64,000 nt of DNA from contig CAWDUC010000010.1 in assembly GCA_963805405.1 (NCBI GenBank), positions 21,142 through 85,141 on the forward strand, in the 5' to 3' direction. Shown piece after piece: positions 1 through 64,000 of this stretch. A program made the translations under genes and the position numbers. The notes below the pieces were generated by a model, which was given only the letters and a program-made list of their open reading frames with translations, was not told the DNA's origin and searched no databases. The DNA is from an uncultured Alphaproteobacteria bacterium. Lineage in GTDB: Bacteria > Pseudomonadota > Alphaproteobacteria > Rhizobiales > Aestuariivirgaceae. Each line of letters opens with the position of its first letter. Position 1 is the first letter of the stretch.

Positions 1-539
1 GGGATCGAGCTTCCAACGATCAGGAGCAGCGAGAACGGCAATCGAAAGCGCAGATAGAAGGCGAGAGAGGCGAAGAACAGCGCCAGGCACACCACAAGGC
101 TGTCGCCATGGAGGAAGGACCGCAAGAAATCGAGATCCGCAGTCCCTTGCGTTGGAAGCAGGTACGCATATCGCCCTGCCAGCATCACAACCGCGAAAGT
201 GAAGAGCACGGCGAGCACGATGCTCGGCAGAGTATAGCGCTTGATCGCGGTGAGATACTCGGCAAGCCCCCACACGATGATCGGAAAGGCCCAGGACATC
301 GCTACGGCGAAAGGCGTCTCGCCGCTGCCGGCAGTGGTGAGGCCGACGCCCAATAGCACGACGCCGAGTGCTATGAAGAACTCGTTGAAGCTGCGCATGA
401 AGACGAAGCGTTCATCGCGCAGGGTCATCGCCTGCCGCGCATCATGGCGCTTGGTCGGCAGGGCGGCGAGGCTTTCGGCTTGTGCCGCAGTGATGATACC
501 GCTGCGCACCGCCTCGTCGAGGTCGTTGCGCGTCAGCAT
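1..539 (-). CDS. hypothetical integral membrane protein (partial; 3' end beyond window start)
   Basis: My own translation of the minus strand gives an open frame from the ATG at ~539 to position 1: [67 protein letters not shown]... with several hydrophobic helices. It is not in the ORF track because it runs off the edge. Its start lies 1 nt from the hslV stop. Confidence 0.5.
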
Positions 540-1117
540 TCGAGGCTTTCGACGATGACGGAATTATTGGTGTAGACGCAGATCTCGGCCGCGATCGCCA
601 GGGCCTTGCGGGCGATCGTCTCGGCATCCATGTCGGTTTCGACGAGCGCTTTTGCGGCCGCGAAGCGCATAATTCCCGCCCGAGCCGATGCCGATGAGGC
701 CATGTTCGGGCTCGAGCACATCGCCGGTTCCGGTCAGGACGAGGCTCGCCTGCTTGTCGGCGACGATCATCATCGCCTCGAGCCGCCGTAAATAGCGGTC
801 GGTGCGCCAGTCCTTGGCCAGCTCGACGCAGGCGCGGGTCAATTGCCCCGGAAACCGCTCGAGCTTCGCCTCGAGGCGTTCGAACAAGGTGAAGGCGTCG
901 GCGGTCGCTCCGGCAAAGCCGCCAATGACATCGCCCGATCCTATCCGGCGAACCTTCTTGGCGTTCGATTTGATGATGGTCTGGCCAAGACTGACCTGGC
1001 CATCCCCGGCGATCACGACGCGATTACCCTTCCTCGAACGTCAGGATCGTCGTGCCGTGCCATTGCTGCAGGTTCACTCATTCGGGGTCCAGTTTCGGCC
1101 GTTGTGACGGCGGTCAT
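533..1117 (-). pseudogene. hslV: ATP-dependent protease subunit HslV (reading frame changes at least twice in given sequence)
   Basis: [53 protein letters not shown]...[52 protein letters not shown] in ORF 564..1016; the C-terminus [29 protein letters not shown] is in ORF 533..721; the N-terminus ([11 protein letters not shown] / [11 protein letters not shown]) shifts frame near 1040-1060. Confidence 0.85.
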
Positions 1118-1209
1118 GTAGGGCTTATAGGCCGGCAAGAAAAGCCGGGGCCTTAGTAGCCTATTTATGTTGCGCCTGCTAAGAACCCGCCCGAAACGGG
1201 CAGGACCCC

Positions 1210-2279: not shown

Positions 2280-2926
2280 ACGTCGCCATCATCGATTATG
2301 GCTCCGGCAATCTTCACTCCGCTGCCAAGGCTTTCGAGCGCGCCGCCATCGACAATGCGATCGACGCGAAGATCGCCGTGGTCTCGGAGGCCGAACGCCT
2401 GCGCGAAGCCGATCGCATCGTGCTGCCCGGTGTCGGCGCCTTCCGCGATTGCCGCGATGGCCTGGACGCGGTGTCCGGCATGCGCGAAGCGCTCGAAGAG
2501 GAAGTAACAAAGCGCGGCAAGCCCTTTCTCGGCATCTGCGTCGGCATGCAGCTCATGGCCGAGCGCGGTCTCGAACATGGCGAGGCGCAAGGCTTGGGCT
2601 GGATTGCCGGCGATGTGGTTGCGATCGAGCCGCGCGATCCCTCCTTCAAGATCCCGCATATGGGTTGGAACACGCTTGAGACGATAAGGCGCCACGCCTT
2701 GCTCGAAGGCATCCCGACGGGTGAAGCCGGAAGGCACGCCTATTTCGTCCATTCTTTTCATCTGCGCCCCGAAAACCTAAGCGATGTCATCGCCCGGACC
2801 GATCACGGCGGCGCCGTCACCGCCATGGTCGGCCGCGACAATATCGCGGGCGTGCAGTTCCATCCCGAGAAGAGCCAGGCGCTTGGTCTCGCCTTGATCG
2901 CCAATTTCCTGCGCTGGAAGCCATGA
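2276..2926 (+). CDS. hisH: imidazole glycerol phosphate synthase, glutamine amidotransferase subunit
   Basis: [23 protein letters not shown]...[14 protein letters not shown]...[14 protein letters not shown]...[10 protein letters not shown]; intact 216 aa. Confidence 0.95.
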
Positions 2927-3659
2927 TCCTCTATCCCGCCATCGACCTCAAAGACGGTCAATGCGTGCGCCTGCAGCGGGGCGACATGCAATCGGCGACC
3001 GTCTTCAACACCGATCCGGCAGCCCAAGCACATGCCTTCGAACGCCAGGGCTTTGAATGGCTGCATCTCGTCGATCTCAACGGCGCCTTCGCCGGCAAGC
3101 CGGTCAATGCCGAAGCCGTCGAGAGCGATCCTGAAACGCGTCTCGATTCCCGTGCAGCTTGGCGGCGGCATTCGCGATCTCGCGACGATTGCCCTGTGGC
3201 TCGACCGAGGCGTGCGCCGGGTCATTCTCGGAACGGCAGCGGCGCGAAATCCGGGCCTCGTGCGCGAGGCCGCGAAGCTCTATCCGGGTCGCATCGCGGT
3301 CGGCATCGATGCCCGCAATGGCCAGGTGGCGGTCGAGGGCTGGGGCGAAACCTCGGCACTTTCGGCACGCGATCTGGCGATGCGCTTTAGCGATGCCGGC
3401 ATCGCGGCGATCATTTATACCGACATCGATCGCGACGGCATGCTGCAAGGCATCAATGTCGACGCGACCTTGGCACTCGCTGCGGGCGTTCCGGTTCCGG
3501 TCATCGCGTCGGGCGGCCTTGGCTCGATGGCCGATATCGAGCGGCTTTCGCAGCCCGATTGCGCAAAGCTGGGTGGCGTGATTGCAGGCCGTGCGCTTTA
3601 TGATGGTCGCATCGACCCTGCCCGTGCTCTTGCGATACTTGCCAAGCCGAAAAGTGCCG
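2923..3659 (+). pseudogene. hisA: 1-(5-phosphoribosyl)-5-[(5-phosphoribosylamino)methylideneamino]imidazole-4-carboxamide isomerase HisA (frameshift ~3110-3130; no stop before downstream SDR)
   Basis: N-terminus [22 protein letters not shown]...[20 protein letters not shown] is in ORF 2923..3390; the remainder [38 protein letters not shown]...[16 protein letters not shown]...[24 protein letters not shown] is in the ORF-3032 frame and reads straight into the SDR ATG at 3662 with no stop. Confidence 0.85.
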
Positions 3660-3661
3660 GC

Positions 3662-4405
3662 ATGAGCACCCGGGTCATCATCGTCACTGGCGGCAGCCGC
3701 GGCATCGGTGCCGCCGTCTCGCGCGCCGCGGCAAAGGAAGGCTATCGCGTCGCCATCAATTATACGAGCCGCCGCGAGCCGGCTGAGAAACTTGTCGCCG
3801 AGATCGAAGCTGCCGGCGGCAACGCCATCGCCGTCAAGGGCGATGTTTCAAGGCATGACGACGTCGTTGCCATGTTCGACACCGCGGAAAAAGCATTTGG
3901 CCCCGTCACTGCCGTCATCAACAATGCCGGCATTACCGGAAAGAGCGGCCCGCTCGCCAAGGCCGATCCGGCTGTCATCCGCGAATGCATCGATATCAAT
4001 GTGACGGGCGCCATCTATGTGGCGCGCGAGGCGGCGCGCCGCATGCTGCCGCGCAAATCCGGTATCATCATCAATATTTCCTCGGCCGCCTCCACCATGG
4101 GCAGTCCCGGCGAATATGTTTGGTACGCGGCCTCGAAGGGCGCGATCGATAGCCTGACCATCGGCCTCGCCAAGGAACTCGCGATCCACGGCATTCGCGT
4201 CAATGCCGTGCAGCCGGGCATGGTCGAGACCGAGATTCATGCCTTGTCGAGCGAGGATGCTGACCGTGTCGAGCGCATCAGGCCGAATATCCCGATGCAG
4301 CGCATCGGCAAACCGGAAGAAATCGCCGATGCCGTCATGTATCTCTTGAGCGACCGATCGACTTACGTGACGGGTGCGATATTGCGAGTGTCGGGCGGCC
4401 GCTGA
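3662..4405 (+). CDS. SDR family NAD(P)-dependent oxidoreductase (inserted between hisA and hisF)
   Basis: [19 protein letters not shown] (TGxxxGIG Rossmann motif), NNAG, and the S...YxxxK catalytic arrangement (ISSAAS...[12 protein letters not shown]), IRVNAVQPG; ~247 aa. Confidence 0.85.
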
Positions 4406-4409
4406 CACC

Positions 4410-5172
4410 ATGTTGAAAGTCCGCATCATTCCCTGTCTCGATGTGAAGGACGGCCGTGTCGTCAAGGGCGTCAACTTCGTCGATCTGCGCGATGCCGGCG
4501 ACCCGGTCGAGGCCGCCAAGGCCTATGACGCGGCGGGTGCGGATGAATTGTGCTTCCTCGATATTACCGCGAGCCATGAGAATCGCGGCATCATCTTCGA
4601 TGTCGTGAGCCGCACGGCGGAAGCCTGCTTCATGCCCTTGACGGTGGGCGGCGGCGTGCGCGAGACGGCGGACATCCGGAAATTGCTGCTGGCAGGCGCC
4701 GACAAGGTATCGATCAACACGGCGGCTGTCCTCGACCGTGCTTTCGTTGGCAGGGCTGCGGAGAAATTCGGTAGCCAATGCATCGTCGTGGCGATCGATG
4801 CCAAGAGCGTAGCACCTGGCCATTATGAAATCTTCACCCATGGCGGCCGCCGTGCCGACCGGCATCGATGCTGTTCAATTCGCGCGCGAAGTCGTGGCGC
4901 TGGGTGCGGGCGAAATACTCCTGACCTCGATGGATCGCGACGGCACCGGCCGGGGCTTCGACGTGGCGTTGACGCGGGCCATCGCCGATGCGGTCACCGT
5001 GCCGGTCATTGCCTCGGGCGGCGTCGGCACGCTTGATCACCTGGTCGAAGGCGTGCGCGATGGCGGCGCGGCTGCGGTGCTGGCCGCCTCGATCTTTCAT
5101 TTCGGCACTTACACGATTGGCGAGGCCAAGCGCCATATGGCCAATTATGCTATTCCGATGCGCATGAACTGA
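4410..5172 (+). pseudogene. hisF: imidazole glycerol phosphate synthase cyclase subunit HisF (frameshift ~4840)
   Basis: [55 protein letters not shown]...CIVVAIDAK in the ORF-4374 frame; [53 protein letters not shown] is in ORF 4825..5172. Confidence 0.88.
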
Positions 5173-6480: not shown

Positions 6481-7473
6481 TCACATCAACCCGTGCTTCT
6501 TCGCGTGCTCGGCGAGATTCACTTCCGGACGCGCCCCGATATGCGAGATGACTTCCGCTGCCGCGAGGCCACCGAGCCTCGCGCAGTGATCGAGCGGCTT
6601 GCCATGCGTGTATCCATAGAGAAACCCTGAGGCGAAGAGATCGCCGGCCCCCGTCGCATCGACGAGTTTCTTGATCGGATACGCCGGAACCGTGTGGAGC
6701 GTATCGCCGGATACCACGACACAGCCCTTTTCCGAACGCGTCAGGACCGCGATCTCGCAGTCTTCCGCCGCAAGCTCGAGTGCGGTGCTGAAATCGTCAG
6801 TCTGGTAAAGCGAGATGATCTCCGTCTCGTTTGCGAAGACGATGTCGATCTGGTTCTTGATGAGATCGAGGAAGCTGTCGCGATGCCGGTCGACGCAGAA
6901 GGAATCGGAAAGCGTGATCGCCGTCTTGCGTCCCGCCTGCGCGCGCGATCGCCGCGGCCTTGACGAAGGCTTCCTTCGCTTCCGGCCGGTCCCACAGATA
7001 GCCTTCCATGTAGGTGACGGCGGCGCCCGCGACGATCTCGGGCACGATATCGGCGACGGTCAGGTTCACGCAGGCGCCGAGATAGGTATTCATCGTGCGC
7101 TCGCCGTCTGGCGTCACCAGGATGAAGCTCCTCGCCGTTGCCGGGCCGTCGACGGCGCGGGCCGAATCGAAATGCACGCCCTGCGCGCGCAAATCATGGC
7201 CGAAGAGATCGCCCATCTGGTCCTGCTTGATCTTGCCGAAATAGGCCGAGCGGCCTCCGAAGGAGGCGATGCCCGCCGCGGTATTGCCGGCCGAGCCGCC
7301 GGAGATCACCGTCGCCGGTCCCATGTCGGCAGAACAGTTCCTCCGCCATTGTCTCGTCGATCAAGCGCATCATGCCCTTGGCAGACCTGGTGCTTTTCGA
7401 GGAACCGCTCATCGACGCGGGCGAGGACATCGACAATGGCATTGCCGATGGAGAGGACGTCAAAACGCGTTAG
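6481..7473 (-). pseudogene. PfkB-family carbohydrate/adenosine kinase (at least 3 frame changes)
   Basis: N-terminus MSLTRFDVLSIGNAIVDVLARVDERFL (ATG ~7473), then KGMMRLIDETMAEELF in a second frame, then MGPATVISGGSAGNTAAGIASFGGRSAYFG...TPDGERTMNTYLGAC...VTYMEGYLWDRPEAKEA in ORF 6797..7324; the C-terminus DATGAGDLFASGFLYGYTHGKPLDHCARLGGLAAAEVISHIGARP is in ORF 6481..6717. Confidence 0.8.
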
Positions 7474-7563: not shown

Positions 7564-8229
7564 ATGATACGGGCAGCTTTCAAGGCGCTTCAGGATCTCC
7601 TTTCGCCGGAGTTTCGCGGCATTCTGTTCAAGGCCCTGGGCCTGACGCTCCTGCTCTTCATCGCCGTTTTCGTCGCCGTCGAGATCATCCTCACATCCTT
7701 GACCCTCGTTCCCTGGGATTGGGCGGAGAACCTGATCGCGGTCATCGCCGGGCTTGGGCTTCTCGTCGCCTTCTTCTTCCTCGCGACGCCCGTGACGGCG
7801 ATGTTCGCCGGGCTCTTCCTCGACCGGGTCGCGGGCTTTGTCGAGAAGCGGCACTATCCGCGCGATCCGCCGGGCGTCGATCTGCCATTGCGCCAGGCGA
7901 TCACCACTGCCTTGCAATTCGCGGTGATCATCCTGCTCGTCAATCTGGCGATCCTGCCGGCGATCTTTTTCGGCATTGGCGCCATCGGCCTCGTCATCGC
8001 CAATGCCTATTTGTTAAGCCGCGAATATTTCGAGATGGCGGCGATGCGCTATATGGATGTCGAGGATGCCAAGGAATTCCGCCGCATCAACTCGCCGCAA
8101 GTCCTGATGTCGGGCTTTATCCCGGCGCTCCTGGCGCTCGTTCCGATCGTCAACCTCGTCGTGCCGCTCTTCGCGACCTCATACTTCATGCACATCCTCA
8201 AAGGGATGCGGAGGCGGTCTTCGGCGTGA
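7564..8229 (+). CDS. CysZ/EI24-family membrane protein (putative sulfate transporter family)
   Basis: 221 aa, multiple TM helices; LPLRQAITTALQFAVIILLVNLAILPAIFFGIGAIGLVIANAYLLSREYFEMAAMRYM resembles the PF07264 (EI24/CysZ) fold family; the C-terminal 10 aa are uncertain. Confidence 0.65.
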   Translation: MIRAAFKALQDLLSPEFRGILFKALGLTLLLFIAVFVAVEIILTSLTLVPWDWAENLIAVIAGLGLLVAFFFLATPVTAMFAGLFLDRVAGFVEKRHYPRDPPGVDLPLRQAITTALQFAVIILLVNLAILPAIFFGIGAIGLVIANAYLLSREYFEMAAMRYMDVEDAKEFRRINSPQVLMSGFIPALLALVPIVNLVVPLFATSYFMHILKGMRRRSSA

Positions 8230-8861
8230 AGCAGGCAGATGTCGGCGATCAGGCAATTGTAGCAGCGCGGCTTGCGCGCCAGGCACACATAGCGCCCATG
8301 CAGGATCAGCCAGTGATGCGCATGAAGCTTGTACTTTGACGGCACGATCTTCTCGAGCCCCATTTCCACTTCGTAGGGCGTCTTGCCCGGCGCCATGCCG
8401 GTGCGGTTGCCGACCCTGAAAATATGCGTGTCGACGGCAATCGTCGGTTCGTTGAAGGCGATGTTGAGCACGACATTGGCGGTCTTGCGCCCGACTCCCG
8501 GCAGGGCTTCCAGTGCGGCGCGCTCGCGCGGGACTTCGCTTCCATGCTGTGCGATGAGCGCCTTTGACAGCCCGATCACATTCTTGGCCTTGGTGCGATA
8601 GAGCCCGATCGTCTTGATGAGGTCGCGTACCTTGTCTTCGCCGAGCGCGAGCATCTTCTCGGGCGTATCGGCAAGCTGGAACAGAGCCGGCGTCGCCTTG
8701 TTGACGCCGGCATCGGTCGCCTGCGCGGAGAGCACCACCGCGACCAGCAATGTGAAGGCGTTGAGGGAATTGAGTTCGCCTTTGGGATGGGGATCGGCTG
8801 CCGCGAAACGCTTGAAGATTTCCTCGACCTGCGCCGGCTTGAGCCGCCTCGCCTTCGCCAT
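8196..8861 (-). pseudogene. nth: endonuclease III (frameshift near C-terminus ~8240, causing read-through to 8049)
   Basis: TLLVAVVLSAQATDAGVNKATPALF...LPGVGRKTANVVLNIAFNEPTIAVDTHIFRVGNRTG (HhH-GPD) and the C-x6-C-xx-C 4Fe-4S loop CLARKPRCYNCLIADIC; an alternate frame gives the canonical end CLFTPKTASASL*. Confidence 0.85.
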
Positions 8862-11867: not shown

Positions 11868-13900
11868 GGGTCTGGCCTTTCCCGCTTGAGAGGTGATTTT
11901 ACGACACTGCCGAATTCGCGCGCGAAGCGATGACCGGAAAAGACCGCGTCCGCAATATGCGAGGGATTGAAGCAATCGCCGATTCGCGTCATCGACGGCG
12001 CATCGGGCATCGAAGCCAATAGCTGATAAAGCAAATCATCCGGCGTCTTGCCGGTCACGAGTATCAATCGGCCAAGCGGCAGGCTCTTCTCTTGGCCCGA
12101 ATAGGCGCAGGCGAAGCACGCTTCATCGCGGCGTCGCGCTGACGAGCCCATGCGACAGGAGAAGCTCGACGCCAAGCTCAATCAAGCGTGCCTGGATGAA
12201 GCCCTGCTCGTCGGTCATCGCCGTCCATGACGAGACGACGGACCCCGGCGTGACATAGGTTACAGCGTGCCCGGCCGTCTTTAATTTCTCGGCCAGCGCA
12301 GTCGCCACTGCGTAATGGTCATCATCATAGATGACGATCGGGCTAGAGAGATCGCCGAGCGCATCGGGCGTGGCGACGGACGCGTCTGCGGCAATCTTGA
12401 CTGGCGTCTCGCCCACCGCGCCGATCCCATCCTTGCGCCAGGTGCTCCCGGTGGCGAGAACGACATGATCGGCGCCGAAGCCGATCACGTCTTCGGCCGT
12501 GAGCCGGCTTTCGCGATAGACCGAAACATTGGCGAGTTTCGAAGCATGTGCTCGCGATAGTCGCGCACCCGGATCCAGGTGCCGAGGCCCGGCAGTGCGG
12601 ACTCAGCAAGAACGCGCCCGCCCAATTGCGCCGTCGCCTCGGCCAGTGTCACCTCATAGCCGCGCTTGCCGAGCGCCAGCGCGCATTCGAGCCCGGCCGG
12701 GCCGCCGCCGACCACCAGCACATGCGCTCGTTGATGTTTCGGCTCGATCCGTTCCGGATGCCAGCCGCGCCGCCATTCCTCGCCCATGGTCGGGTTCTGC
12801 GTGCAGCGCAGATGGCACGCCTCGTTGTTGGCCGCCCGGCAGATATTGCAGCCGATGCATTCGCGGATTTCGTCCTCGCGGCCTTCGCGGATCTTGGTCG
12901 GCAGGAACGGATCGGCGATCGAGGGCCGCGCCGCGCCGATGAAATCGGTGAATGCCGCGCCTGATCTGGCGACACCATGAGATCGGGCGAGGTGAAGCGC
13001 CCGACCGTCGACCACCGGCTTCGATGGTCATGCGATTTGACGAAGGAAATATATTCGTCCTGGTAGCCTTCCTCGCCGAAAACGCGCGCACTCTTGAAAT
13101 CATTGCCGAGCGCTCCGGCGACATTCACGTCCCAAAGATCGGGCAATTCGGCGAGCATGGCCCATGATCTCGCGCGCCTCGCCATCGGCAGGTGATGCCG
13201 TGCGGCCCGTGCAGTTCATCGACCGCCATGCGTACCGCGACCGCCGCAGCTTGCCGCCGCGTCGCCTCGCGCGTCACCTCGATCATCTCGCGCAGCAGCC
13301 GCGCGCGGTTTTCGAGTCGAGCCGCCATATTCGTCGATGCGCCGGTTGGTGCGCGGCGACAGGAACTGGAAGGGCAGATAGTCGTGGCCGGCATAGACAT
13401 AGACGATGTCAAAGCCGGCCTTGACCGCGCGTTCCGCGGCGAGCCTCTGCCAGTCGCGGAAAGCGGCGATGTCGGCCTTGTCCATGGCGCGCGCGCCCAT
13501 CGGCTGAACGAATTTGGCGCGCTGGCCCGAAGGCGACAGCATCGGCTCGCGGGTCAGCCGGTTATTGGCGTGGAAGCCGCCATGCCAGAGCTCGACCGCG
13601 GCGAGGCTGCCATGGGCATGGACGGCATCGGCGATCTTGGCGAGCGCCTGGACATCGTCTTCGTCCCACAGGGTCAAATAGCCATAAGGGAAATCATCAG
13701 ACGACGGATGAATGGAGCAGTATTCGGTGCAGACCACGCCCCAGCCGCCTTCGGCCTTGATGCCGCGCAGGGCCGCGCGAGGCTTTCGGCGCGCGCCAGC
13801 CCATGCCGGTTGCATGCGGCGTCTGGTAGAAGCGGTTCGGCGCGGTGACCGGGCCGATCTTCATCTCCTGGAACAGGATATCGTAGCGGGGATTGCGCAT
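11864..13900 (-). pseudogene. trimethylamine dehydrogenase / N-methylproline demethylase (StcD)-like FMN-[4Fe-4S]-FAD oxidoreductase (at least 5 frame changes)
   Basis: Pieces across ORFs 13697..13948, 13216..13815, 13125..13412, 12649..13185, 12485..13015, 12123..12488 and 11864..12181: MRNPRYDILFQEMKIGPVTAPNRFYQTPHATGMGW, AEGGWGVVCTEYCSIHPSSDD, AVELWHGG, IECIGCNICRAANNEACHLRCTQNPTMGEEWRRGWHPERI, AHVLVVGGGPAGLECALALGKRGYEVTLAEA. These are collinear with the TMADH/DMADH family. Confidence 0.8.
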
Positions 13901-14036
13901 GTCTTTCCTTGTTGAACGTTTGTACAATAAGGAATGCACCCCGCGCAAGCCGATCCTCTCCCTTGCCCTTCACTTTGTCATTGCCGGGCTTGTCCCGGCA
14001 ATCCATCATGCAGGAACAGAATGGGAGGCCGCATCA

Positions 14037-49316: not shown

Positions 49317-49336
49317 ACCCCAACGAAAGTTGGGGT
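49317..49336. terminator. terminator-like hairpins between convergent grpE and SPFH genes
   Basis: accccaac-gaaa-gttggggt (8-bp stem, GNRA loop); a second hairpin atgccag-gtgtcg-ctggcat lies at ~49361-49380. Confidence 0.5.
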
Positions 49337-49399
49337 CGATCAGAAACGCGATCCCGATGGATGCCAGGTGTCGCTGGCATGGGAGTCAGGCGGAACTGG

Positions 49400-51199
49400 T
49401 TACTGCCCCGATCCTGGCGGAACCTGACTGTCTTCCTTCTTCGATCCGCCAAGCGCATTGCCAAGGATCGCCGCCGCGCCTTCCAGCCCTGAACCGTTGA
49501 CGACCGTATTCGGTACGAGCTTGCCGATCAGCGTAACGAGCTGCGGCTGCCGCTCGAGCGAGATGAGAGTCTTGTCGAGCGCCTGCAGCATGGTGACGCG
49601 ATCCTGGCCCAGAACCTCGGTCTGGGCCTTTTGGCCAAGCGCGATTTCCTCCAGGTACTTGCGCTCGGCGCGGCCGAGAGCGGCACGTTCGGCTTCCCTC
49701 TGTTCGGCGACCTGCACGGCGATCTGCGCTTCGACGAGGCGCGGCTGCTCGTCCGCCGTCGAGCGCGCCTGTTCGGTTTCGATGCGCTGCTTTTGCGCTT
49801 CGGTTTCGCGAATATAGGCCTGGCCCAACTGGTCGGCGAGCTGCACGCGCAGGCGCCCGATCAGGATTTCGGGTGGAATAGAGGGTTCGCCGAGGCGGAT
49901 TTCGCGGATTTCGACGCCCGCCTTGCGCGCTTCGCTCTTGATGATGTCCTCGATCGTGTCCTCGATCGCCACGCGATTTTCGATGAGATCAAGCACGCGC
50001 GTCTGGCGCACCTCATAGCCGACGATCTTGTCGCCTTCGCGCTTCGGGATGCGGATATTCGAGCCGGCGACGTTGCGCACGATCGAGCGGATGAGCGGTG
50101 TCAGGATGCGATGTTCGATTTCCTGGATTCCGCCGACCGAGCCGGCGACGATCGGCGCGTTTTCCGGCGAGACCTGCGCCACCACCCGCAATTCCTGCGG
50201 AATGTCCCAGCCCTCGACCTTCATCATCACTGCGCGGTCGACGGCGGTCGATGGGACCGGCTCATCAAAGCTGCGCTCGGTCTGGGTCAATTGTCCCTGC
50301 TGGTCGAGGGAGAGATCGATCGTGCGCCGCTTGAATCCGCCCTTGTACTCCCAGGTCTGCACCCGCGTATCGACGGGCGTGATGTCATAGGCATGCCGGT
50401 TGAGGTAGTAGGCGCCCGGCAGAAGCGGTTCCTTCCACAGGCCGATGCAGCCGCGCGGCACCAGCGGTACGGAAAGGGCGTCGGCATCATGCTGCGCCTC
50501 GCTCACCCGCACCAACTCTTCTTTGCAATTGAGCCCGGGCTGCTGAACGTTGGATTTGACGACGCCAACCTGTCCTGCCGGAATCACGGTCGCCGTCGTG
50601 TCGTTGTCGCTGCGGACATCGAAGAGATAGCGGTTGAGGCGATAGGCGCCGGGCTTCAGCACGGTTTCCTGAGGCCCGCGGAATCCGCCCTGTTCGATGA
50701 AGGTCTGGGCGTTGAGCATGTCGGCGAGCTTGTCGTCCGGTATCACTGGCGCGATGAACATGCCTTCCGGCATCGGCAGACCGTCATTGGTGGTGATCTG
50801 CCCGTAAAAGCCTTCCGGGATCTGCACCACCGGATATTGCTCGACCTCGTAGAGGACATTGAGGAGCGGCCGGAAATGGAATCCGGGTCCCAGGACTTCT
50901 GCCTGCGGACCCTTCTGGCCTGGCAGCGCGATGATCCGGCCGGGCGGCAGATCGTCGGCAAGGTAGATGCGCTTCAGGTGCCCGACGCGGTCGGCTGAAA
51001 TCTGGACGAAGGAGGTCGAAGTGAGGAAGCCGATGCCGGCGATCACCATCAGGATGCCGGTCAGTGGGCCACGAAACAGGCCACTCAAGGCTGAAAAGCG
51101 GCCAGCGGGAACGGGGGTGGTGCCTGGCGGCGGACTGCGGCGGAGAAAGGCCTGTACCCCGAAAAGGATCAGAACCAGACCGATGATTACCCGCAGCAT
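49400..51199 (-). CDS. SPFH/band-7 (flotillin-like) domain membrane protein, 599 aa
   Basis: N-terminal TM helices (MLRVIIGLVLILFGVQAF..., ILMVIAGIGFL), a central SPFH-like region (...VVAQVSPENAPIVAGSVGGIQEIEHRILTPLIRSIVRNVAGSNIRIPKREGDKIVGYEVRQTRVLDLIENRV...) and a C-terminal coiled-coil (ETEAQKQRIETEQARSTADEQPRLVEAQIAVQVAEQREAERAALGRAERKYLEE); intact. Confidence 0.65.
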   Translation of the reverse strand: MLRVIIGLVLILFGVQAFLRRSPPPGTTPVPAGRFSALSGLFRGPLTGILMVIAGIGFLTSTSFVQISADRVGHLKRIYLADDLPPGRIIALPGQKGPQAEVLGPGFHFRPLLNVLYEVEQYPVVQIPEGFYGQITTNDGLPMPEGMFIAPVIPDDKLADMLNAQTFIEQGGFRGPQETVLKPGAYRLNRYLFDVRSDNDTTATVIPAGQVGVVKSNVQQPGLNCKEELVRVSEAQHDADALSVPLVPRGCIGLWKEPLLPGAYYLNRHAYDITPVDTRVQTWEYKGGFKRRTIDLSLDQQGQLTQTERSFDEPVPSTAVDRAVMMKVEGWDIPQELRVVAQVSPENAPIVAGSVGGIQEIEHRILTPLIRSIVRNVAGSNIRIPKREGDKIVGYEVRQTRVLDLIENRVAIEDTIEDIIKSEARKAGVEIREIRLGEPSIPPEILIGRLRVQLADQLGQAYIRETEAQKQRIETEQARSTADEQPRLVEAQIAVQVAEQREAERAALGRAERKYLEEIALGQKAQTEVLGQDRVTMLQALDKTLISLERQPQLVTLIGKLVPNTVVNGSGLEGAAAILGNALGGSKKEDSQVPPGSGQ

Positions 51200-51304
51200 G
51201 TGCGTCCCCCCGTCGTCATCGATCCTTATACACTAGCCCAGGAAAGAGACCCCTGAAAGGCGCGATAAAGGCGTTCGCTGGGTGTTCCAATGACAGGATT
51301 ATGC

Positions 51305-51936
51305 TCACAATGCAGGCTTGGTGACCCTGCGCAACGTGAGGTTGATGCGCCCGCCCCGGGCACCAATGTCGAGCTTCCCGCCAGCACCCGGTCTATGCCG
51401 TGGTATCGGAGACGCGACGCCCCGCCCATCACCACGACGTCGCCCGAAGCGAGCTTGAGCGTCTCGGTCTTGCCGCCGCGCATCAACCCGCCGATGCGGA
51501 AAATCGCGGTATCGCCGAGCGACACGGAAACCACCGGGGCCGAGAAATCCTCCTCGTCTTCGTCGCGATGCAGCCCCATCTTGGCGCCTTCGCGATAGAG
51601 ATTGACCAGACAGGCTTGCGGCGGATGCGGATAGTCGGAAACCGCCTGCCACAGCGACTGCAGAATTTCGGGGATCGCCGGCCACGGCTGCCCCGTTTCG
51701 GGATGCATGGATTGATAGCGGTAGCCGGCGCGATCCGAGACCCACCCCAGCGGACCGAGATTCGTCATCCTGACGCTGAACGGCCGGCCGCTCTTCGGCA
51801 TGGTCGGGCTGTAGAATGGCGCTTTTTCCGCTGCCGTCAGCACCGTCGCGACGAGATTTTTCTGCGCTTCCGGCGTGAAAAAACCGGGGAGATATTCAAG
51901 ACCGGGAGATGTGGTAAATGACTTCTTGGATTCCAC
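51305..51936 (-). pseudogene. alkB: alpha-ketoglutarate-dependent dioxygenase AlkB (DNA/RNA oxidative demethylase; frameshift ~51370)
   Basis: GWVSDRAGYRYQS...PWPAIPEILQSLWQAV...PQACLVNLYREGAKMGLHRDEDEEDFSAPVVSVSLGDTAIFRIGGL...SGDVVVMGGASRLRYHGI in ORF 51226..51936; the canonical C-terminus GRINLTLRRV is in ORF 51305..51745. Confidence 0.85.
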
Positions 51937-51957
51937 TCATGGCTTCGGTAACGCGCG

Positions 51958-51988
51958 CTTGATAGGCTCCGACCACCATCTTATATAG
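51958..51988 (+). promoter_or_regulatory. sigma-32 (RpoH)-type heat-shock promoter upstream of dnaK
   Basis: CTTGAT-(16 nt)-CTTATATAG, matching the alphaproteobacterial RpoH consensus CTTGAA-N16/17-CYTATNT; located ~145 bp upstream of the dnaK ATG in the alkB/dnaK divergent region. Confidence 0.55.
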
Positions 51989-52134
51989 CCCCTCGGAATT
52001 CTGCAGCAGCGCTTGGCAATCAGGCATCTGCAGCCCATATGTCGATCAGGAGACTCGGCCGCCACGGGCGACCGGGGTCAGGAAGCGCCTTACACAGGGC
52101 TTCAGGCGGGTCTGCCACAAGGAGGATTATTTAT

Positions 52135-54069
<1,935 letters not shown>

Positions 54070-54092
54070 GTCTAAGTCTGAAGTGAAATGAA

Positions 54093-54138
54093 CCTCATCC
54101 GGCACGGTCGGCACTTAACGGTGCCGCGCCGGATGAGG
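54093..54138 (+). other. dnaK-dnaJ intergenic stem-loop (11-bp perfect stem; probable attenuator/processing hairpin)
   Basis: cctcatccggc-(24 nt, itself ggcac...gtgcc)-gccggatgagg; there is no clear U-tract downstream. Confidence 0.55.
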
Positions 54139-54224
54139 GCAATCACAATTGAAAAAGGTAGTGGCCGCGCATGGGGCAGTCTTGGCCTTTGCGGTGCGCG
54201 GCGCGTTCATGGTAGTGACGGCTG

Positions 54225-55382
54225 ATGGCAAAGCGCGACTATTACGAGGTTCTTGGCGTCGCGCGCGGCGCTGATGAAAAGGAACTCAAGAACGCCTTTC
54301 GCAAGCTTGCCAAGCTAAGTCATCCCGATGCCAAGCCGGGTGATAAGCAGGCAGAGCACCGCTTCAAGGAAATCAACGAAGCCTATGACGTGCTGCGCGA
54401 TCCCCAGAAGCGCGCCGCTTACGACCGCTTCGGCCATCAGGCCTTCGAGAATGGCATGGGCGGCGGGCGCGGCGGCCCAGGCTTCGGTCCGGAATTCTCC
54501 TCCTCGATGTCGGATATTTTCGAGGACCTGTTCGGCGAATTCATGGGCGGTGGTCGCGGGCGCGGCCAAGGTGCCGGCGGCAGGCGCGGCGGCGCCTCGC
54601 GCGGCGCCGATCTGCGCTACAACATGGAAATCAGCCTCACCGAGGCTTTCGCCGGCAAGACCGCGCAGATCCGCGTGCCGAGTTCCGTCAATTGCGAACA
54701 TTGCTCCGGCACGGGCGCGAAGTCCGGAACCTCGCCCAAGGCCTGTACGACCTGCGGCGGCGTCGGCGCCGTGCGTTCGACGCAAGGCTTCTTCACGGTC
54801 GAACGGACCTGTCCGACCTGCCAGGGCCGTGGCCAGGTCATTTCCGATCCCTGCTCGCATTGCGGCGGCCAGGGCCGCGTCACGCGCGAGCGCACGCTTT
54901 CGGTGAATATCCCAGCGGGCGTCGAGGATGGCACGCGCATCAGATTGGCCAGCGAAGGCGAGGCCGGCACGCGCGGCGGCTCGTCCGGCGATCTCTATAT
55001 TTTCTTGAGCATCAGGCCGCACGAATTCTTCCAGCGCGATGGCGCCGATCTGTTCTGCAAAGTGCCGATCTCGATGACGGCGGCAGCGATGGGCGGCGAG
55101 ATCGAGGTGCCGACCATCGACGGCAAGAAGGCGCGCGTCACGATCCCCGAAGGCGCCCAGACCGGCAAGCAATTCCGCCTTAAGAGCAAAGGCATGCCGG
55201 TCTTGCGCTCGGCCCAGGCCGGCGACCTCTATATCCAGGTCACCGTCGAGACGCCGGTCAACCTGTCGCGCCGCCAGCGCGAACTCCTTAAGGAATTCGA
55301 GCACGAGGCGCGCAACAACTCGCCGCAATCGGAGGGTTTTTTCGCCAAGGCCAAGGCCTTCTGGGAAGGCTTCGGGTCGTAG
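54225..55382 (+). CDS. dnaJ: molecular chaperone DnaJ
   Basis: [35 protein letters not shown] (J domain HPD), a Gly-rich linker, four CxxCxG zinc-finger repeats ([32 protein letters not shown]); intact 385 aa. Confidence 0.96.
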
Positions 55383-56559: not shown

Positions 56560-57987
<1,428 letters not shown>

Positions 57988-58050: not shown

Positions 58051-59251
58051 TTACTTGTACGGGTCCGCTGCGTCGCGCAGGCCGTCGCCGAGGAAATTGA
58101 AGGCGAGGATGACGAAGATAACCGGCACGACCGGCGTCATCAGCCAGGGATAAAGCGCCACGACATTCACGTTCTGCGCTTCGGTGAGGAGCACGCCCCA
58201 GCTAGTGATCGGCGGCCGCAAGCCTAATCCTAAGAAGCTCAAGGCCGTCTCGCCGAGAATCATCGCCGGGATCGAGATCGTCGCAGAAGCGATCAGATGC
58301 GACATGAAGCCCGGGATCAGATGGCGTCCGATGATGCGGCTGCTGGAGGCGCCCATCAATTGCGCTGCAAGCACGTAATCCTCTTCGCGCAAGGCAAGCA
58401 GTTTCGATCGGACCGCGCGGGCAAGCCCCGTCCAGTCGAGCAGGCCGAGGATCATCGTAATGCCGAAATAGACGAGCAACGGACTCCAGGTGACCGGCAT
58501 GATCGCCGCGAGCGCCAGCCACAGCGGGATCGAGGGTATCGACTGCAGCACTTCGATGATGCGTTGGACGATCAGGTCGAAGCGTGCCGCCGTGAAACCC
58601 GGCAAAGCCGCCGATCACGATGCCGAGGACGAAGCTGAACGTAACGCCGAGAAGGCCGATGGTGAGCGAGATGCGGGCGCCGTAGATGATGCGCGAAAGT
58701 ACGTCGCGACCGCGACGGTCGGTGCCGAGCAGGAAGGCTTCGCCGTCGACCGCCGGGCAGAAAAGATGGATATCGCCCGGCAAAAAGCCCCAGAACTTGT
58801 ATTTGTCGCCGCGGCAGAGGAACCGGAGTGGCTTCACGTCGTCATGATTGACGGAGTATTCCCGCTTCAGCGTGTCCATGTTTAGCTTCATGGTCAGGCC
58901 ATAGACGAACGGCCCCACCAGCTTGCCGTCATGGAAAAGATGCACGCGCTGCGGCGGCGCGTAGATGTAGTCCATGTTGCGCGTGTGCAGATTATAGGGG
59001 GCAAGAAATTCGCAGATCAGGATCGCGGCATAGAGCGCCAACAGGAAGAACAGCGAGAACAATGCGATCTTGTGGCGCTTGAACTTCCACCAGCTCAACC
59101 GCCACTGCGAAGCGAGATAGACGCGCTCCTGCGCCGGCGTCATCGCCTCGACGGAATGGATGTCGAAGGGCGCCGACGAAACATAATGCGGCAACGGGCC
59201 GCCGGGCGGCGGCAATGGCGAGGCTGTCGTGGGCGGCGAAGCGTCGTTCAT
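58051..59251 (-). pseudogene. yejE: ABC peptide transporter permease YejE-like (frameshift ~58590)
   Basis: N-terminal extension plus FLLGTDRRGRDVLSRIIYGARISLTIGLLGVTFSFVLGIVIGG (ORF 58202..59251); the C-terminus ...IPLWLALAAIMPVTWSPLLVYFGITMILGLLDWTGLARAVRSKLLALREEDYVLAAQLMGASSSRIIGRHLIPGFMSHLIA...NFLGDGLRDAADPY is in ORF 58051..58605. Confidence 0.85.
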
Positions 59252-60246
59252 TTCGTGCTTCCCCCTTGCAGCCGGATGCGCGGGTCGAGCGCGGCGAGCG
59301 CAAGGTCGGAGATGAGCACGCCGATCACGGTCAAGAAGGCGAGGAACATCAGGAACGAGCCGGCGAGATACATGTCCTGGCTCTTCAGCGCCCTGATCAG
59401 CATCGGGCCGGTCGTCTCGAGAGACAGCACGATCGCGGTGACTTCAGCACCGGAAATGATCGCCGGCAGGATCGATCCGATATCGGAGATGAAGAAGTTG
59501 AGCGACATGCGCAACGGGTATTTCACCAGTGCCCGGAACGGCTGCATGCCCTTGGCGCGCGCCGTGACGACATACTGCTTCTGCAATTCATCGAGGAGAT
59601 TGGCGCGCAATCGCCTGATCATGCCGGCGGTGCCGCCGGTGCCGATGATGATCACCGGAATCCACAGATGCGACAAGATCGACTTGAACTTGTCCCAGCT
59701 CATCGGCTCGTTGAAATACTGCGGATCCATCAGGTGGCCGATAGACAGTGCCGAACCAGATATTCGCGAAATACATGAAGACCAGTGCCAGGAGAAAGTT
59801 CGGTATGGCAAGGCCGAGCAGGCCGAGGAAGGTCAGTCCGTAATCGCCCCAGCTATATTGGTGCGTCGCCGAATAGATGCCGATCGGGAACGCCATCAGC
59901 CAGGTGAATATGATGGTGACGAAGGAGACGAGCATGGTGAGCCATAATCGATCGCCGACCACGTCCGAAACCGGCAATTGATATTCGAAGGAATAGCCGA
60001 AATCGCCGACGAACATGCCTCCAAGCCAGTAGACGTAGCGGACGACGATTGGCTTGTCGAAACCATACTCCTTGCGCAGCGCCTCGATCTGCTCGGTATT
60101 GACGTTCTCGCCCTGCGCCTGGAGTTCGGCGATGTAGCTTTCGAAATAATCGCCGGGCGGCAATTCGATGATTGCGAAGACCAATGCCGAGATGATGAGC
60201 AAGGTCGGGACCATCACCGCGACGCGCCAAAGTATGTATCGCAGCA
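59248..60246 (-). pseudogene. yejB: ABC peptide transporter permease YejB-like (frameshift ~59760)
   Basis: MLRYILWRVAVMVPTLLIISALVFAIIELPPGDYFESYIAELQAQG... (ORF 59588..60577); ...YVVTARAKGMQPFRALVKYPLRMSLNFFISDIGSILPAIISGAEVTAIVLSLETTGPMLIRAL... (ORF 59248..59811). Confidence 0.85.
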
Positions 60247-60249
60247 TCT

Positions 60250-62155
60250 TTAGGCAGCCTCGTCTTCGTAGAAGAATGTGTCGGCGCGATAGACGCCGAA
60301 ATAGCAGGTGGGATCGAACCCGTAAAAAGCGCTGGCGGGAATGTTCTTGATGCGGGCATTGGCGACGATCGGCTGCAATGTTCCGTTGAGGATGCCGATC
60401 GAGAAGACCTGGTCGGTATAGTGCTTGAGCATCTTGTGCCAGATAAGCGCACGCGCTTCGCGATCCGGCGCGCGTCGCCAGTCGGCGAGCATCGCCATCA
60501 TTTCCTGCACCGGCGCGATATCGGGCGGCGTGCCCTTTTCGCCGCGCGTGACGAAGTTCATTCCCCAGATCGGCCACTGCAATTCTTCATCGCCGGTTGG
60601 CGCGAGCGCATCGGGACTCATGTCGGCGGTGGAGATGCCATTGTCGATGCCCGGACGAAATCGACATCATCACCTGGCCGGCGAGCGCGCGGCTGCGTAA
60701 GACTTCGATCTGGGAAGTACGGATATAGAGCGGAATGCCGACCTCGCTCCAGTAATCGGCGACAAGCTCGAGGATGTCGGTATCGAGCGTACTTTCGCCC
60801 GCCGATTCGACAATGACTTGCGCTACGCGACCGTCGGGCAGAAGCCTGAATCCCTCTTCGTTGCGCTTGTCGAGCCCCATTTCATCGAGAATGGCATTGG
60901 CCTGCGCCGGATCATGGGCGATCCAGGCATCGGCATATTCCTGCCGGAACAGCGGACTTTGCGGCAGCATCGTATCCGCACTCGGACGACCAAGGCCGAA
61001 GAACGCGGCCATGTTGATCTCGCGACGGTTGATGGCGAGCGACAGGGCGCGGCGGAAACGCGGATCCTGCATGACTTTCCGCCAAGTCTCGTCCTCGTAA
61101 TTGAGGTTCGGAAAGAGGGCGACACGCGAGCCTTGTGTGCGCTCCCACAGATAGACCTTGATGGCGTGCCGCTTCTCGGACTCCTTGAGGAAGGTATAGT
61201 CCTCGAACTGGATATTGGTCGCCTGGAGGTCGGTTTCCCCGGCACCGGTCTTGGCGGGGATGAGAGACGACGAACTGATCGTGAAGACGAAGCGGTCGAA
61301 ATACGGCAATTGCCGCCCGTCGCGATCGACGCGGTGGAAATAGGGATTGCGCACCATCACGAACTGCTCGGCCGGCGGCTTGGTCGAGTTGACCCACGGG
61401 TCCAGCATCGGCAGGTCGGGATTTTCCGGGCGATATTGCCGCGACATGTTGATGTGCAGCCGCGCCCAGTTCTTGACCTTGTTCTTCTTGATCAGCTCCT
61501 CGAGCTTTTCCTCGCTTTGATACTTGGCGTGGAACTGCTTGAGGTAATGCGCCGGCATGACGAGCGCCAGTGCCTGCGCAGCGGCGATGCCGAGCATGAA
61601 ATCCGGATTGGGCGCGTCCCAGCTGTAACGAACGGTATACTCGTCGATGATCTCGAAGACCGGCGGCTTGCCATTGACCATGAGGGTCGGGGAAACGCCG
61701 CCGGGCGACAGCTTCTCGTTCAGGATGACGTCTTCCCAGGCATAGCGGAAATCTTCCGTCGTGAAGGGATGGCCGTCGGACCATTTGTGCCCGGGACGCA
61801 GCCTGAAGGTAAAGATACGATCTTCCTCGATCGTGAATTCCTGCAGGATGTCGGGCTCGAGTTCGAGTTTCTCGTTATAGCCCGCCAGCCGCGCATAGCC
61901 GAAGACCGTTATATAACGGACGTCGCGCTGCGCGCCGATCAGCATGCGCACCGTCCCGCCATGCCGGCCGGGAACGCGGCCCATGGCGACAAGGTCGGTA
62001 ACCCGCGGGATTTCCGGAAGGCGCTGATCGAGCGGTGGCAGCTTTCCGGCCTGCACGTCGGCAAGCAGCGGATCGCGGACGATGTCCTGCGCAAAAGAGG
62101 GCCGCACCATCGCCGCGGTGGCGAGAAGCCCTAGCGCCTCGCGACGTGTCGTCAT
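60250..62155 (-). pseudogene. yejA: ABC transporter substrate-binding protein YejA-like (family 5 SBP; frameshift ~60650)
   Basis: Tat/Sec-like N-terminus MTTRREALGLLATAAMVRPSFAQ, then ...GGTVRMLIGAQRDVRYITVFGYARLAGYNEKLELEPDILQ... (ORF 60587..62155); the C-terminus ...ALIWHKMLKHYTDQVFSIGILNGTLQPIVANARIKNIPASAFYGFDP is in ORF 60250..60621. Confidence 0.85.
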
Positions 62156-64000
62156 GGCCGCAGCTCCCTCGCATCCGCATCGGCGCGCGCCAGCACCAGA
62201 TGTTCAGAGCCCACTGGCCGGTGCTGGAGAATATCATCGGCCGCATCGCTGCGAAACTGCGCCGGCCATAGCGAAATGTCCGACGCCCCGCTGAACTGCA
62301 GCGTCGCGAAATCGAGCGGCCGGTCAAGATCGGGAAACGGTACCGCCGCCAGGAGCGACTTGGTGTAGGGATGCACCGGCGAGCGGAAAAGGATCTCGCG
62401 CGGGTGCGATCTCGACAATGCGACCGCGGCACATGACGGCGATGCGGTCAGCCATGTAGTCGACGACCGCGAGGTTATGCGAGATGAACAGGTAAGTAAG
62501 GCCCAGTTCGCGGCGCAGATCGTTGAGGAGATTGAGAATCTGTGCCTGGACCGAGACGTCGAGCGCCGAGACGGGTTCGTCGCAGATCAGAAGTTGTGGA
62601 CCGAGTGCGAGCGCGCGTGCAATGCCGATGCGCTGGCGTTGGCCGCCGGAGAAGCTGTGCGGATAGCGGCTCAGGAAGCGGGGATCGAGGCCGGTCGCCT
62701 GCATCAGCGCCTTGACTGCGGCCAGCCTGGAGCGGCCGTCGCCGCGGTCGTGGATCTCCAGCGGCTCGGAAAGGATATTCTGCACCGTCATGCGCGGCGA
62801 CAGCGAACTCACCGGATCCTGAAACACCATCTGCACGCGCGAGCGCAGATCGTCGAGCTGACTGCCTTCCGCCTTACCGATATCGATCGGCCCGTCGCCG
62901 CCGTCGAAAACGATCGAGCCGCGAATCAGGCGTGATGGCGCGCATGATGAGTTTGGAAACGGTCGTCTTGCCGCAACCGCTTTCGCCGACCAGTCCCAGG
63001 CATTCGCCGCGCTTGATGTCGAAACTGACGTCTTCGACAGCGCGCGTTACGGTCTTCTCGCCCGCACCGAACCAGCCGGATTTGCGGATCGAATAGGACT
63101 TGGAGAGATTTTTCACCGAAAGCAGCGTATCGGCGCCGGCCGTTCGCTTCGGCACTGCCGCGAGGAGTGAACCAGCGTCGATCTTGATGTCGCGGAGCGC
63201 CTTCAGCCTTTCGCCCGCCTGCATGTCGAAATGCGGCACGGCCGCGAGCAGGCCCTTTAGATAGGGGTGTCCCGGGCGGCGGAAGATATCCTCGACCTTG
63301 CCGCCTTCCATGATCTCGCCGTGATAGATGACCGCCACTTCGTCAGCGACATTGGCGACGACGCCGAGATCATGGGTGATGAGCAGCATCGCCATGCCGA
63401 GCTTTTCCTGAAGGTCCTTGAGCAGCTTCAGGATCTGCGCCTGGATCGTCACGTCGAGGGCGGTCGTCGGCTCATCGGCGATGAGCAGTGCCGGATCGCA
63501 GATAAGGGCCATGGCGATCATGGCGCGCTGACGCAAACCTCCCGACAATTCGAACGGATACATCGTCGCGGCGCGATTCGGATTGGGAAATCCGACGAGA
63601 CCGAGCATGTCTTCGGTGCGCTCCAGCGTCTCGGCTTTCGACACTTTCTTGTGGATGCGCAGCACTTCGCCGATCTGGTTGCCGATCGTGTGGAGCGGCG
63701 ACAACGAGGTCATCGGCTCCTGGAAGATCATGCCGATGCGGCTGCCGCGCAATTTGCGCATATCGTCGCTGTCGCGGCTGAGTTGCGCGATATCGATTAC
63801 TTTGCCGGGGGTGCGCGGGTCGCTGAACAGGATCCTTCCGCGCGAAATGCTCCCCGAGCGCGGCAGGATCCCCATGACGGTCTGCGCGATCACCGATTTC
63901 CCGGAGCCCGATTCGCCGACGAGTGCGGTTACCTTGCCCGGACTGATGCGCAAGCTGGCCGACTTGACGGCCTCGATGCGGCCGCCCAGAAGCGCAAACG
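62152..64000 (-). pseudogene. yejF: ABC transporter ATP-binding protein YejF-like (two ATPase domains; partial, 5' end beyond window; frameshifts ~62880 and ~62400)
   Basis: First ATPase domain in ORF 62874..63953 (LVGESGSGKSVIAQ Walker [16 protein letters not shown] signature, [12 protein letters not shown]); second in ORF 62324..62836 (HSFSGGQRQRIGIARAL, LLICDEPVSALD) preceded by GLVGESGCGKTT; the C-terminal tail is in ORF 62152..62418. Confidence 0.85.

Follow-up and report, generated by a model that had tools for sequence, protein, structure and literature searches.

Genomes undergoing reductive evolution, such as those of Mycobacterium leprae and of recent insect symbionts, are characterized by relaxed selection, the presence of stop codons and deletions, the loss of genes and active IS elements, and a deletion bias in bacterial pseudogenes was reportedly described by Mira, Ochman and Moran in 2001. 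Frameshifting sites of the prfB/dnaX type and the sites of mitochondrial editing in Physarum are of a different kind: they occur singly or at regular intervals, are shared by related organisms and affect the transcript only. Long-read assemblies are also known from the literature to contain indels that fragment genes (PMC12007338; PMC9262707), and the residual errors of Nanopore and HiFi assemblies are dominated by homopolymer indels, with deletions prominent in the case of Nanopore (PMC12007338).

The window analyzed here, a stretch of 64,000 nt, contains 27 frame-broken genes in the sequence as written. It resembles assemblies with indel errors (Kastor's problem, PMC12007338; also PMC9262707, PMC8442456) in that indels of 1–2 nt split conserved genes into adjacent fragments, the orthologues of relatives are intact, and the function of a gene is irrelevant to its being affected. 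In contrast to published Nanopore and HiFi errors, the indels are insertion-dominated (110 versus 28) and depleted in homopolymer contexts, and their rate, unlike that of published long-read indel errors, varies greatly from place to place, with about 18 per kb in tracts and 0 elsewhere. With reductive genomes the window shares many frameshifted genes beside intact ones, but its dN/dS is unchanged, its indels are mostly insertions and its synteny is complete. As in prfB/dnaX-type frameshifting or Physarum editing, the frame of the DNA does not match the protein; however, relatives lack the sites, which are randomly spaced and occur in spacers as well.

Broken and intact genes

In Pfam searches of the frame-corrected translations (Table 1), single HMM matches crossed the frame junctions in hslV, hisA, hisF and the genes of the PfkB kinase, the OYE/Pyr_redox oxidoreductase and the Gfo/Idh/MocA oxidoreductase, and were likewise unbroken over those of the ROK kinase and cupin genes, dapB, yejE, yejB, yejA and yejF. 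DNA alignment with close relatives confirmed the breaks in miaB, nfu, trpS, murJ, glnD, mutS, maeB, nth and the acetyltransferase and PfkB kinase genes, while direct three-frame reading confirmed those in alkB, the VOC gene, tsaB and the C-terminus of the hybrid histidine kinase-response regulator (HK-RR). A Viterbi segmentation based on codon usage replaced a simple GC3 frame plot, which was too noisy; some of the frameshifts that it called were ordinary gene boundaries (e.g. yraN/rsmI and the two DUF1330 genes).

The first-pass annotation had reported about 27 conserved genes broken beside long intact neighbours. Our count agrees with this, and dnaK, dnaJ, yifB, gshB, hrcA, grpE, rsmI, coaA and hemW are full length, each matched in one stretch by an NCBIfam equivalog model. 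The description of glnD and murJ as scattered over at least 5 frames is not literally correct: all three minus-strand frames are used, in more than 20 pieces. Scans of the window for tRNA genes and Rfam families found nothing.

Table 1. Frame-broken genes, dense indel tracts and a mostly clean stretch (positions within the window)
Feature	Position	Strand	Breaks and remarks
hslV	539..1031	-	one, near 650; Proteasome HMM (15-187 of 189) crosses junction
hisA	2917..3660	+	near 3124; stop codon also lost, reads through into next gene
hisF	4395..5169	+	near 4839; His_biosynth HMM (1-227 of 228) crosses junction
PfkB-family kinase	6496..7450	-	1-nt insertions 6940 (junction ~6932), 7331, 7383
nth	8203..8861	-	1-nt insertion 8232; last ~10 codons only; ORF overrun to 8049
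OYE + Pyr_redox_2 oxidoreductase	11909..13903	-	at least 5 frame changes; one near 13771
Gfo/Idh/MocA oxidoreductase	14037..15021	+	near 14661; Pfam match across junction
ROK kinase	15292..16127	-	near 15522; Pfam match across junction
Cupin / mannose-6-phosphate isomerase C-terminal type gene	16134..16431	-	near 16370-16384
Aldo/keto reductase	16495..17309	-	probable, near 16700; C-terminal third in other frame
miaB	21865..23273	-	many; homologue split over two frames
tsaB-rimI fusion gene	24082..25190	-	near 25063; cuts off first ~40 codons
Nfu-type Fe-S gene (nfu)	25206..25759	-	several; DNA alignment
trpS	25864..26907	-	39 nt inserted, 8 nt deleted; DNA alignment
murJ	26994..28565	-	24 nt inserted, 7 nt deleted; DNA alignment
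glnD	28625..31411	-	26 nt inserted, 6 nt deleted, all downstream of 30523; first 299 codons clean
mutS	31408..34120	-	sole 1-nt insertion at 33847
maeB	34254..36523	+	1-nt insertions at 34507, 36363
Acetyltransf_5 gene	36529..37370	-	insertions at 36634, 37152
HK-RR	37440..39342	-	net +1 shift near 37578-37595
VOC/glyoxalase gene	46392..46695	-	near 46.45 kb; three-frame reading
alkB	51226..51936	-	near 51.3 kb; GGRINLTLRRV motif in other frame
dapB	56560..57349	+	~57145; DapB_C HMM (1-121 of 121) crosses junction
yejE	58054..59251	-	near 58598; Pfam match across junction
yejB	59275..60226	-	1-nt insertion at 59749; DNA alignment + Pfam
yejA	60259..62155	-	1-nt insertion at 60652; DNA alignment + Pfam
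yejF	62170..63995	-	insertion at 62402 + break near 62933; DNA alignment + Pfam
Dense indel tract 1 (5.1 kb)	25392..30523		nfu, trpS, murJ, 3' two-thirds of glnD + spacers
Dense indel tract 2 (~1 kb)	22198..23170		inside miaB; some gap pairs may be alignment noise
Dense indel tract 3	12130..13771		inside OYE/Pyr_redox oxidoreductase gene; right-hand end beyond reference
Mostly clean stretch	39408..55382		two breaks only (VOC, alkB)

Type and distribution of the indels

Four metagenome or MAG contigs from independent relatives with 88–94% amino-acid identity served as references, each forming a single collinear block with the window (L081, 17.7 kb; L082, 9.8 kb; L084, 3.1 kb; L086, 7.3 kb). The part of the window covered by them amounts to 28 kb, in which all of the affected genes are intact ORFs in the relatives; in L081 and L086, for example, glnD has 926 aa, murJ 518 aa and trpS 344 aa. 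With a DNA divergence of about 15% between the window and the references, substitution errors can be assessed only above a level of about 1%, and where divergence is high (miaB, tsaB, HK-RR) alignment noise may account for a few of the gap pairs. A further candidate, P0123 / L083 (81% YejA), was dropped on account of its paralogous context without synteny, and the relatives obtained by scanning genome contigs with MutS (at most 66% identity) were too distant for comparison at the DNA level. The MutS identity of the nearest species representative is only 66%, and exact-sequence look-ups with gshB and dnaJ of the window gave no match in the protein collection.

The alignments allowed us to carry out the check, proposed earlier, of whether the breaks are indels of 1–2 nt; almost all of them are, and the orthologues are intact. 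Within the 28 kb we identified 155 high-confidence frame-changing indels, of which 110 were of the +1 and 28 of the −1 type; insertions outnumber deletions by about 4:1. Where L081 and L082 overlap, 59 of 67 insertions and 10 of 13 deletions were seen against both references, which places the changes on the side of the window. In 29 of the 110 insertions the added base repeated a neighbour, versus 51 ± 5 expected, so homopolymers are avoided; most inserted bases are unlike either neighbour, with an enrichment of G[C]G and C[G]C contexts. The codon phase of the insertions is near uniform (33/29/17). No compensatory pairing of +1 and −1 changes was seen; the insertions accumulate. When the insertion sites were compared with methylation-type motifs (GANTC, GATC, CCWGG), only a weak excess of GANTC was found (7 versus 3.0 ± 1.7).

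The clustering of the breaks is real: over the 53 reference-covered bins of 500 nt, the index of dispersion is 5.6 and 20 bins are empty, versus 2.9 expected. The first-pass annotation had placed the densest clusters at about 25.2–34.1, 11.8–17.3 and 58–64 kb. For the first of these, the high density holds at 25.39–30.52 kb but not at 30.55–33.0 kb, where there are no indels at all; for the second, it holds at 12.1–13.8 kb, while 14–17.3 kb has only about one break per kb, and a density of only about one break per kb was likewise found at 58–64 kb. The dense tract at 22.2–23.2 kb (miaB) had not been singled out.

Tract 1 contains approx. 75 insertions and 19 deletions with a median spacing of 44 nt (CV 1.1), which looks random, and the stretch 26816–30523 accounts for 57 of the 59 one-nt insertions on which L081 and L082 agree. 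Read along glnD, the tract begins in the middle of the gene, at 30523, and insertions are also present in its spacers (28577–28610 and 26922–26973). In tract 3, 16 nt are inserted and 2 nt deleted relative to an open ORF of 609 codons in L086. The indels thus follow tracts of DNA, ignore gene boundaries and strike spacers too. The region 39.4–57 kb, where no close reference was available, has only two frame breaks; yifB, gshB, rsmI, hemW, hrcA, grpE, the SPFH gene, dnaK and dnaJ are all open in its mostly clean stretch.

Origin of the broken frames

The frame breaks are very probably errors of sequencing or assembly (consensus), and the real genes of the organism would be intact. This reading, preferred already in the first-pass annotation, is supported by the size of the indels (1–2 nt), their disregard of boundaries and the unchanged purifying selection. 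The consensus may have kept patches of residual, insertion-dominated 1-nt indels, the likely sources being regions assembled from a small number of error-prone single-molecule reads or regions missed by polishing. That the indels arose during sequencing or assembly, and from which kind of data, is what we infer, on evolutionary grounds. Unpolished long reads may be the source, although homopolymer association, the typical signature of Nanopore, HiFi, 454 or Ion Torrent data, was not found among the insertions; given their avoidance of homopolymers, the usual residual-error profile of these platforms, including that of Nanopore or HiFi, does not fit.

The main biological alternative, recent pseudogenisation by real indels with functional trpS, murJ, glnD and dapB located elsewhere or supplied by a host, would account for the many genes, essential ones included, that are unreadable as written. 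Under active decay dN should be elevated, stops should appear in frame and deletions should prevail, and none of these expectations was borne out. After removal of the extra bases, dN/dS was 0.07 for glnD, 0.13 for murJ, 0.12 for trpS, 0.115 for the OYE gene and 0.07 for pfkB, compared with 0.09 for mutS, 0.04 for maeB, 0.08 for plsC and 0.045 for mttB; the heavily broken genes (without miaB, tsaB-rimI and nfu, at 0.15–0.21) span 0.04–0.13, versus 0.04–0.12 for the intact or nearly intact ones. Amino-acid identity after correction also equals that of intact neighbours, 0 to 2 in-frame stops per gene are left, and the mismatch fraction in dense bins is no higher than elsewhere. The codons beneath the indels are still under purifying selection, and this, together with the near absence of in-frame stops, excludes real decay save by an indel-only mutational process. 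Moreover, 94 indels in 5.1 kb without excess substitutions would require indels to arise far more often than substitutions, and the predominance of insertions is opposite to the deletion bias of decay. Synteny with the relatives is unbroken over blocks of 17.7 and 7.3 kb, and no gene loss was seen in the 28 kb that they cover; tract borders lie inside genes, spacers are equally affected, and the Pfam hits include no IS-related family. The window contains no second copy of trpS, murJ, glnD or dapB. Decay is accordingly very unlikely. That the bases are truly present in the DNA of the living cell through a localised insertion-only process (e.g. error-prone patch synthesis over tracts of 1–5 kb), too recent for substitutions or with the bases removed at the RNA or translation level, is highly improbable.

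An artefact of another kind could arise if the consensus combined reads of two co-occurring strains and carried the two alleles of a SNP next to each other, and the inserted bases, mostly unlike both neighbours and enriched in the G[C]G and C[G]C contexts, agree with such doubling. Apparent frameshifts are known to result from collapsed haplotypes (PMC8445201). When tested, this explanation was not supported: 62 of 79 insertions adjoin a third codon position versus 67% expected (p ~0.07), and in 0 of 13 cases was the inserted base identical to the reference allele in the adjacent mismatched column, which leaves doubling unlikely. Correction of real extra bases during expression, whether through RNA editing by deletion or through massive ribosomal frameshifting or bypassing, has almost no probability. 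The sites are absent from relatives at 88–94% identity, are also intergenic, begin in mid-gene, lack a motif and number up to ~40 per gene. A programmed frameshift would be a single conserved site per gene, common to relatives, and none of the sites in the window was found in the relatives. We know of no bacterial precedent for the correction of such insertions.

Consequences for use of the record

The breaks are almost certainly not a real biological feature, and their main significance is one of data hygiene. Pseudogenes or split ORFs would be called for about 27 genes, trpS, murJ, glnD, dapB, mutS and the his genes among them, which would distort metabolic reconstruction, estimates of completeness and contamination, pseudogene counts and inferences of genome reduction. 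Since the lineage is poorly represented, as the distance to the nearest species representative indicates, the record may come to serve as a reference.

Polishing or flagging is due for the tracts at 12.1–13.8, 22.2–23.2 and 25.4–30.5 kb and for approx. 25 scattered sites, and the odd, insertion-biased and homopolymer-avoiding signature is worth reporting to the producers of the assembly. The oxidoreductase gene with OYE and Pyr_redox_2 domains, in which the first of these tracts lies, resembles trimethylamine dehydrogenase.

Gene content, nearest relatives and reading frames

The window (62% G+C) is an alphaproteobacterial (Hyphomicrobiales-like) chromosomal segment carrying the housekeeping genes hslV, the his operon, coaA, nth, miaB, trpS, murJ, glnD, mutS, maeB, yifB, gshB, rsmI, hrcA-grpE, dnaKJ, dapB, gpmA and yejABEF; scans of all 64 kb revealed neither tRNA genes nor Rfam matches. 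Among 185,579 genomes, the closest species representative shared only 66% MutS identity, compared with up to 88-95% identity for unbinned or poor-quality metagenome contigs, and this lineage is under-represented in reference genomes. Four relatives, all metagenome or MAG contigs, served as references, each forming one collinear block with the window (see the table). They are ~15% diverged, and substitution errors of ~1% or less are therefore below detection.

Reference contigs and distribution of frame-changing indels along the window
Feature	Window position	Details
L081 (JGI sample 3300015615)	21306-38994	17.7 kb; DNA identity 83.7%; MutS 90%
L082 (GCA_016793355.1)	26810-36572	~9.8 kb; DNA identity 85.9%; MutS 88%
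L084 (Logan assembly)	59351-62432	~3.1 kb; DNA identity 86.7%; YejA 92%
L086 (JAESFU010001203.1)	6481-13709	7.3 kb; DNA identity 86.6%; MttB-like 94%
Dense tract (main)	25392-30523	~18 events per kb
Dense tract	22198-23170	
Dense tract	12130 to at least 13771	
Indel-free	30.55-33.0 kb and 21.0-22.0 kb	L081 alignment
One frame-changing indel only	23.2-25.0 kb	at 24412
Two breaks only	39.4-57 kb	no close reference; frame and profile analysis
Remaining stretches		~one break per kb

The first-pass annotation had described about 27 conserved genes with broken frames beside long intact neighbours. Our own total, obtained from DNA alignments to relatives, Pfam alignments across frame junctions and three-frame reading, was 27. 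Those lying within relative-covered spans were all intact ORFs in the relatives (for example glnD 926 aa, murJ 518, trpS 344, miaB 470, mutS 901, maeB 758), and the ORF of the OYE/Pyr_redox oxidoreductase was open over 609 codons in L086. Stretches without a close reference were analyzed by codon-usage Viterbi segmentation followed by a Pfam search of the frame-joined translations. Single HMM alignments crossed the frame junctions of hslV, hisA, hisF, dapB, yejE, yejB, yejA, yejF and the PfkB kinase, OYE, Gfo/Idh/MocA, ROK kinase and cupin genes, while three-frame reading confirmed the breaks in alkB, the VOC gene, tsaB and the C-terminus of the hybrid histidine kinase-response regulator. nth does have the reported break, but it is trivial, as the insertion (1 nt, position 8232) affects the last ~10 codons only. 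The genes described as intact fit full-length NCBIfam equivalog models in one stretch (for example dnaK 1-624 of 625, yifB 4-499 of 499, coaA 2-310 of 310).

Several loci deserve separate mention. At 3602-3670 (ORF 3032..4405), hisA runs without a stop into the next short-chain dehydrogenase (SDR) gene; since the +1 frame (...CCGGCATGA) yields a stop overlapping the SDR ATG, it is likely that one more indel went undetected within the final ~10 codons of hisA. The VOC/glyoxalase gene similarly passes without a stop codon into rdgB (46170-46400, minus strand), whose start is probably a TTG near 46190; either the two genes genuinely overlap or another indel lies close to the 3′ end of the VOC gene. 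An apparent shift in the DUF1330 region was rejected, as it corresponds to two adjacent genes: tandem intact DUF1330-like paralogues of ~95 aa each in different frames (55420-56040, plus strand), an arrangement easily mistaken for a frameshift. At 24082-25190 (minus strand) tsaB and a rimI-type acetyltransferase form a fusion, which also occurs in L081 and is intact there (365 aa; 14874-15971). At 10383-13903 (minus strand) an MttB-family methyltransferase adjoins the OYE gene, which resembles trimethylamine/dimethylamine dehydrogenase; the adjacency recurs in relatives (L086, L087, L088), and the pair is suggestive of a methylated-amine breakdown module.

Number, type and clustering of the indels

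Gaps were counted when the 24 flanking columns were at least 75% identical and the length was not a multiple of three. Over the 28 kb covered, comparison with the relatives revealed 155 events, almost all of them 1-2 nt long. Single-nucleotide insertions numbered 110 and single-nucleotide deletions 28; there were also six two-nt insertions, seven two-nt deletions and four four-nt insertions. In the stretch covered by both L081 and L082, the two relatives agree on 59 of the 67 one-nt insertions and on 10 of the 13 one-nt deletions, which places the change on the window's side. The insertions add up uncompensated (+26/-6 nt in glnD and +39/-8 in trpS).

The clustering noted in the first-pass annotation is real: the 53 reference-covered 500-nt bins contained a mean of 2.9 events (index of dispersion 5.6), and 20 of them were empty, compared with 2.9 under a Poisson model. 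However, the block proposed at 25.2-34.1 kb is too wide, as it includes an indel-free part, and 58-64 kb is sparse, not dense. The main tract has its border inside glnD, at 30523 after 299 clean codons, and extends across the spacers that separate glnD from murJ and murJ from trpS, each of which carries five to six insertions. The breaks are thus a property of DNA tracts, not of genes. Within the main tract, the breaks are spaced in an exponential-like manner (median 44 nt, CV 1.1), and the codon phase of insertions is near uniform (33/29/17).

Consensus error or genome decay

Two readings had been put forward, local consensus error and, as an alternative, real pseudogenisation in a genome under active decay. 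For the selection test, extra bases were deleted and missing ones padded in the window genes, and codons were then compared with the relatives. In six of the broken genes dN/dS was 0.07-0.13 (glnD 0.07, at 94% amino-acid identity; murJ 0.13; trpS 0.12; OYE gene 0.115; pfkB 0.07; yejA 0.07); values were 0.09 for mutS (one insertion), 0.04 for maeB (two insertions), and 0.08 and 0.045 for the intact plsC and mttB-like genes. In all compared genes dS was ~0.5, with 0-2 in-frame stops per gene left after frame correction, and the mismatch fraction was no higher in dense than in clean bins. In a pseudogene with 30-40 frameshifts, substitutions should greatly outnumber indels and dN should approach dS, but neither was seen. 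Given the low dN/dS, the lack of deletion bias among the 155 indels, the synteny kept in single collinear blocks and the failure to find second gene copies within the window, active decay was rejected. Pseudogenes of a decaying genome are defined by eroded synteny, a bias towards deletions, stop codons and relaxation of selection, a picture that the broken genes do not fit; nor do the breaks fit programmed recoding, for which single conserved sites are required. The exception left to this rejection is a localised mutational process making indels only, for which we know of no precedent.

The frame breaks are not a biological feature. The insertion-dominated, randomly placed 1-nt indels, lying in patches over conserved coding sequence under purifying selection, are very probably residual consensus errors, as the first-pass annotation had preferred. 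These stretches may have been backed by few error-prone reads or missed by polishing. Such gene-fragmenting indels have been documented as a flaw of long-read assemblies (PMC12007338; PMC9262707; PMC8442456), and the breaks share the testable features of this class, with the exception of homopolymer association. Their value lies in a flag for the sequence record and in an unusual error profile.

The inserted base matched a neighbour in only 29 of 110 cases (26%), compared with 51 ± 5 (47%) expected, and a count as low as 29 was reached in none of 5000 simulations; homopolymers are thus avoided, and G[C]G (the commonest) and C[G]C contexts are favoured. A methylation-type motif test revealed at most a weak excess of GANTC at insertion sites (7 vs 3.0 ± 1.7). 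Residual Nanopore/HiFi errors are in the main homopolymer indels (PMC12007338). The insertion signature is atypical and fits no platform profile that could be documented. Raw PacBio CLR reads are rich in insertions, and a low-depth CLR-type consensus would fit the excess of insertions in the window. Mixed-strain "SNP doubling" found no support: third-position adjacency was 78% vs 67% expected (p ~0.07), and 0 of 13 inserted bases were identical to the reference allele at a neighbouring mismatch.

One of the few classic homopolymer-type events is a 1-nt deletion at 7496, in a T run of the spacer between the PfkB kinase gene and cysZ.
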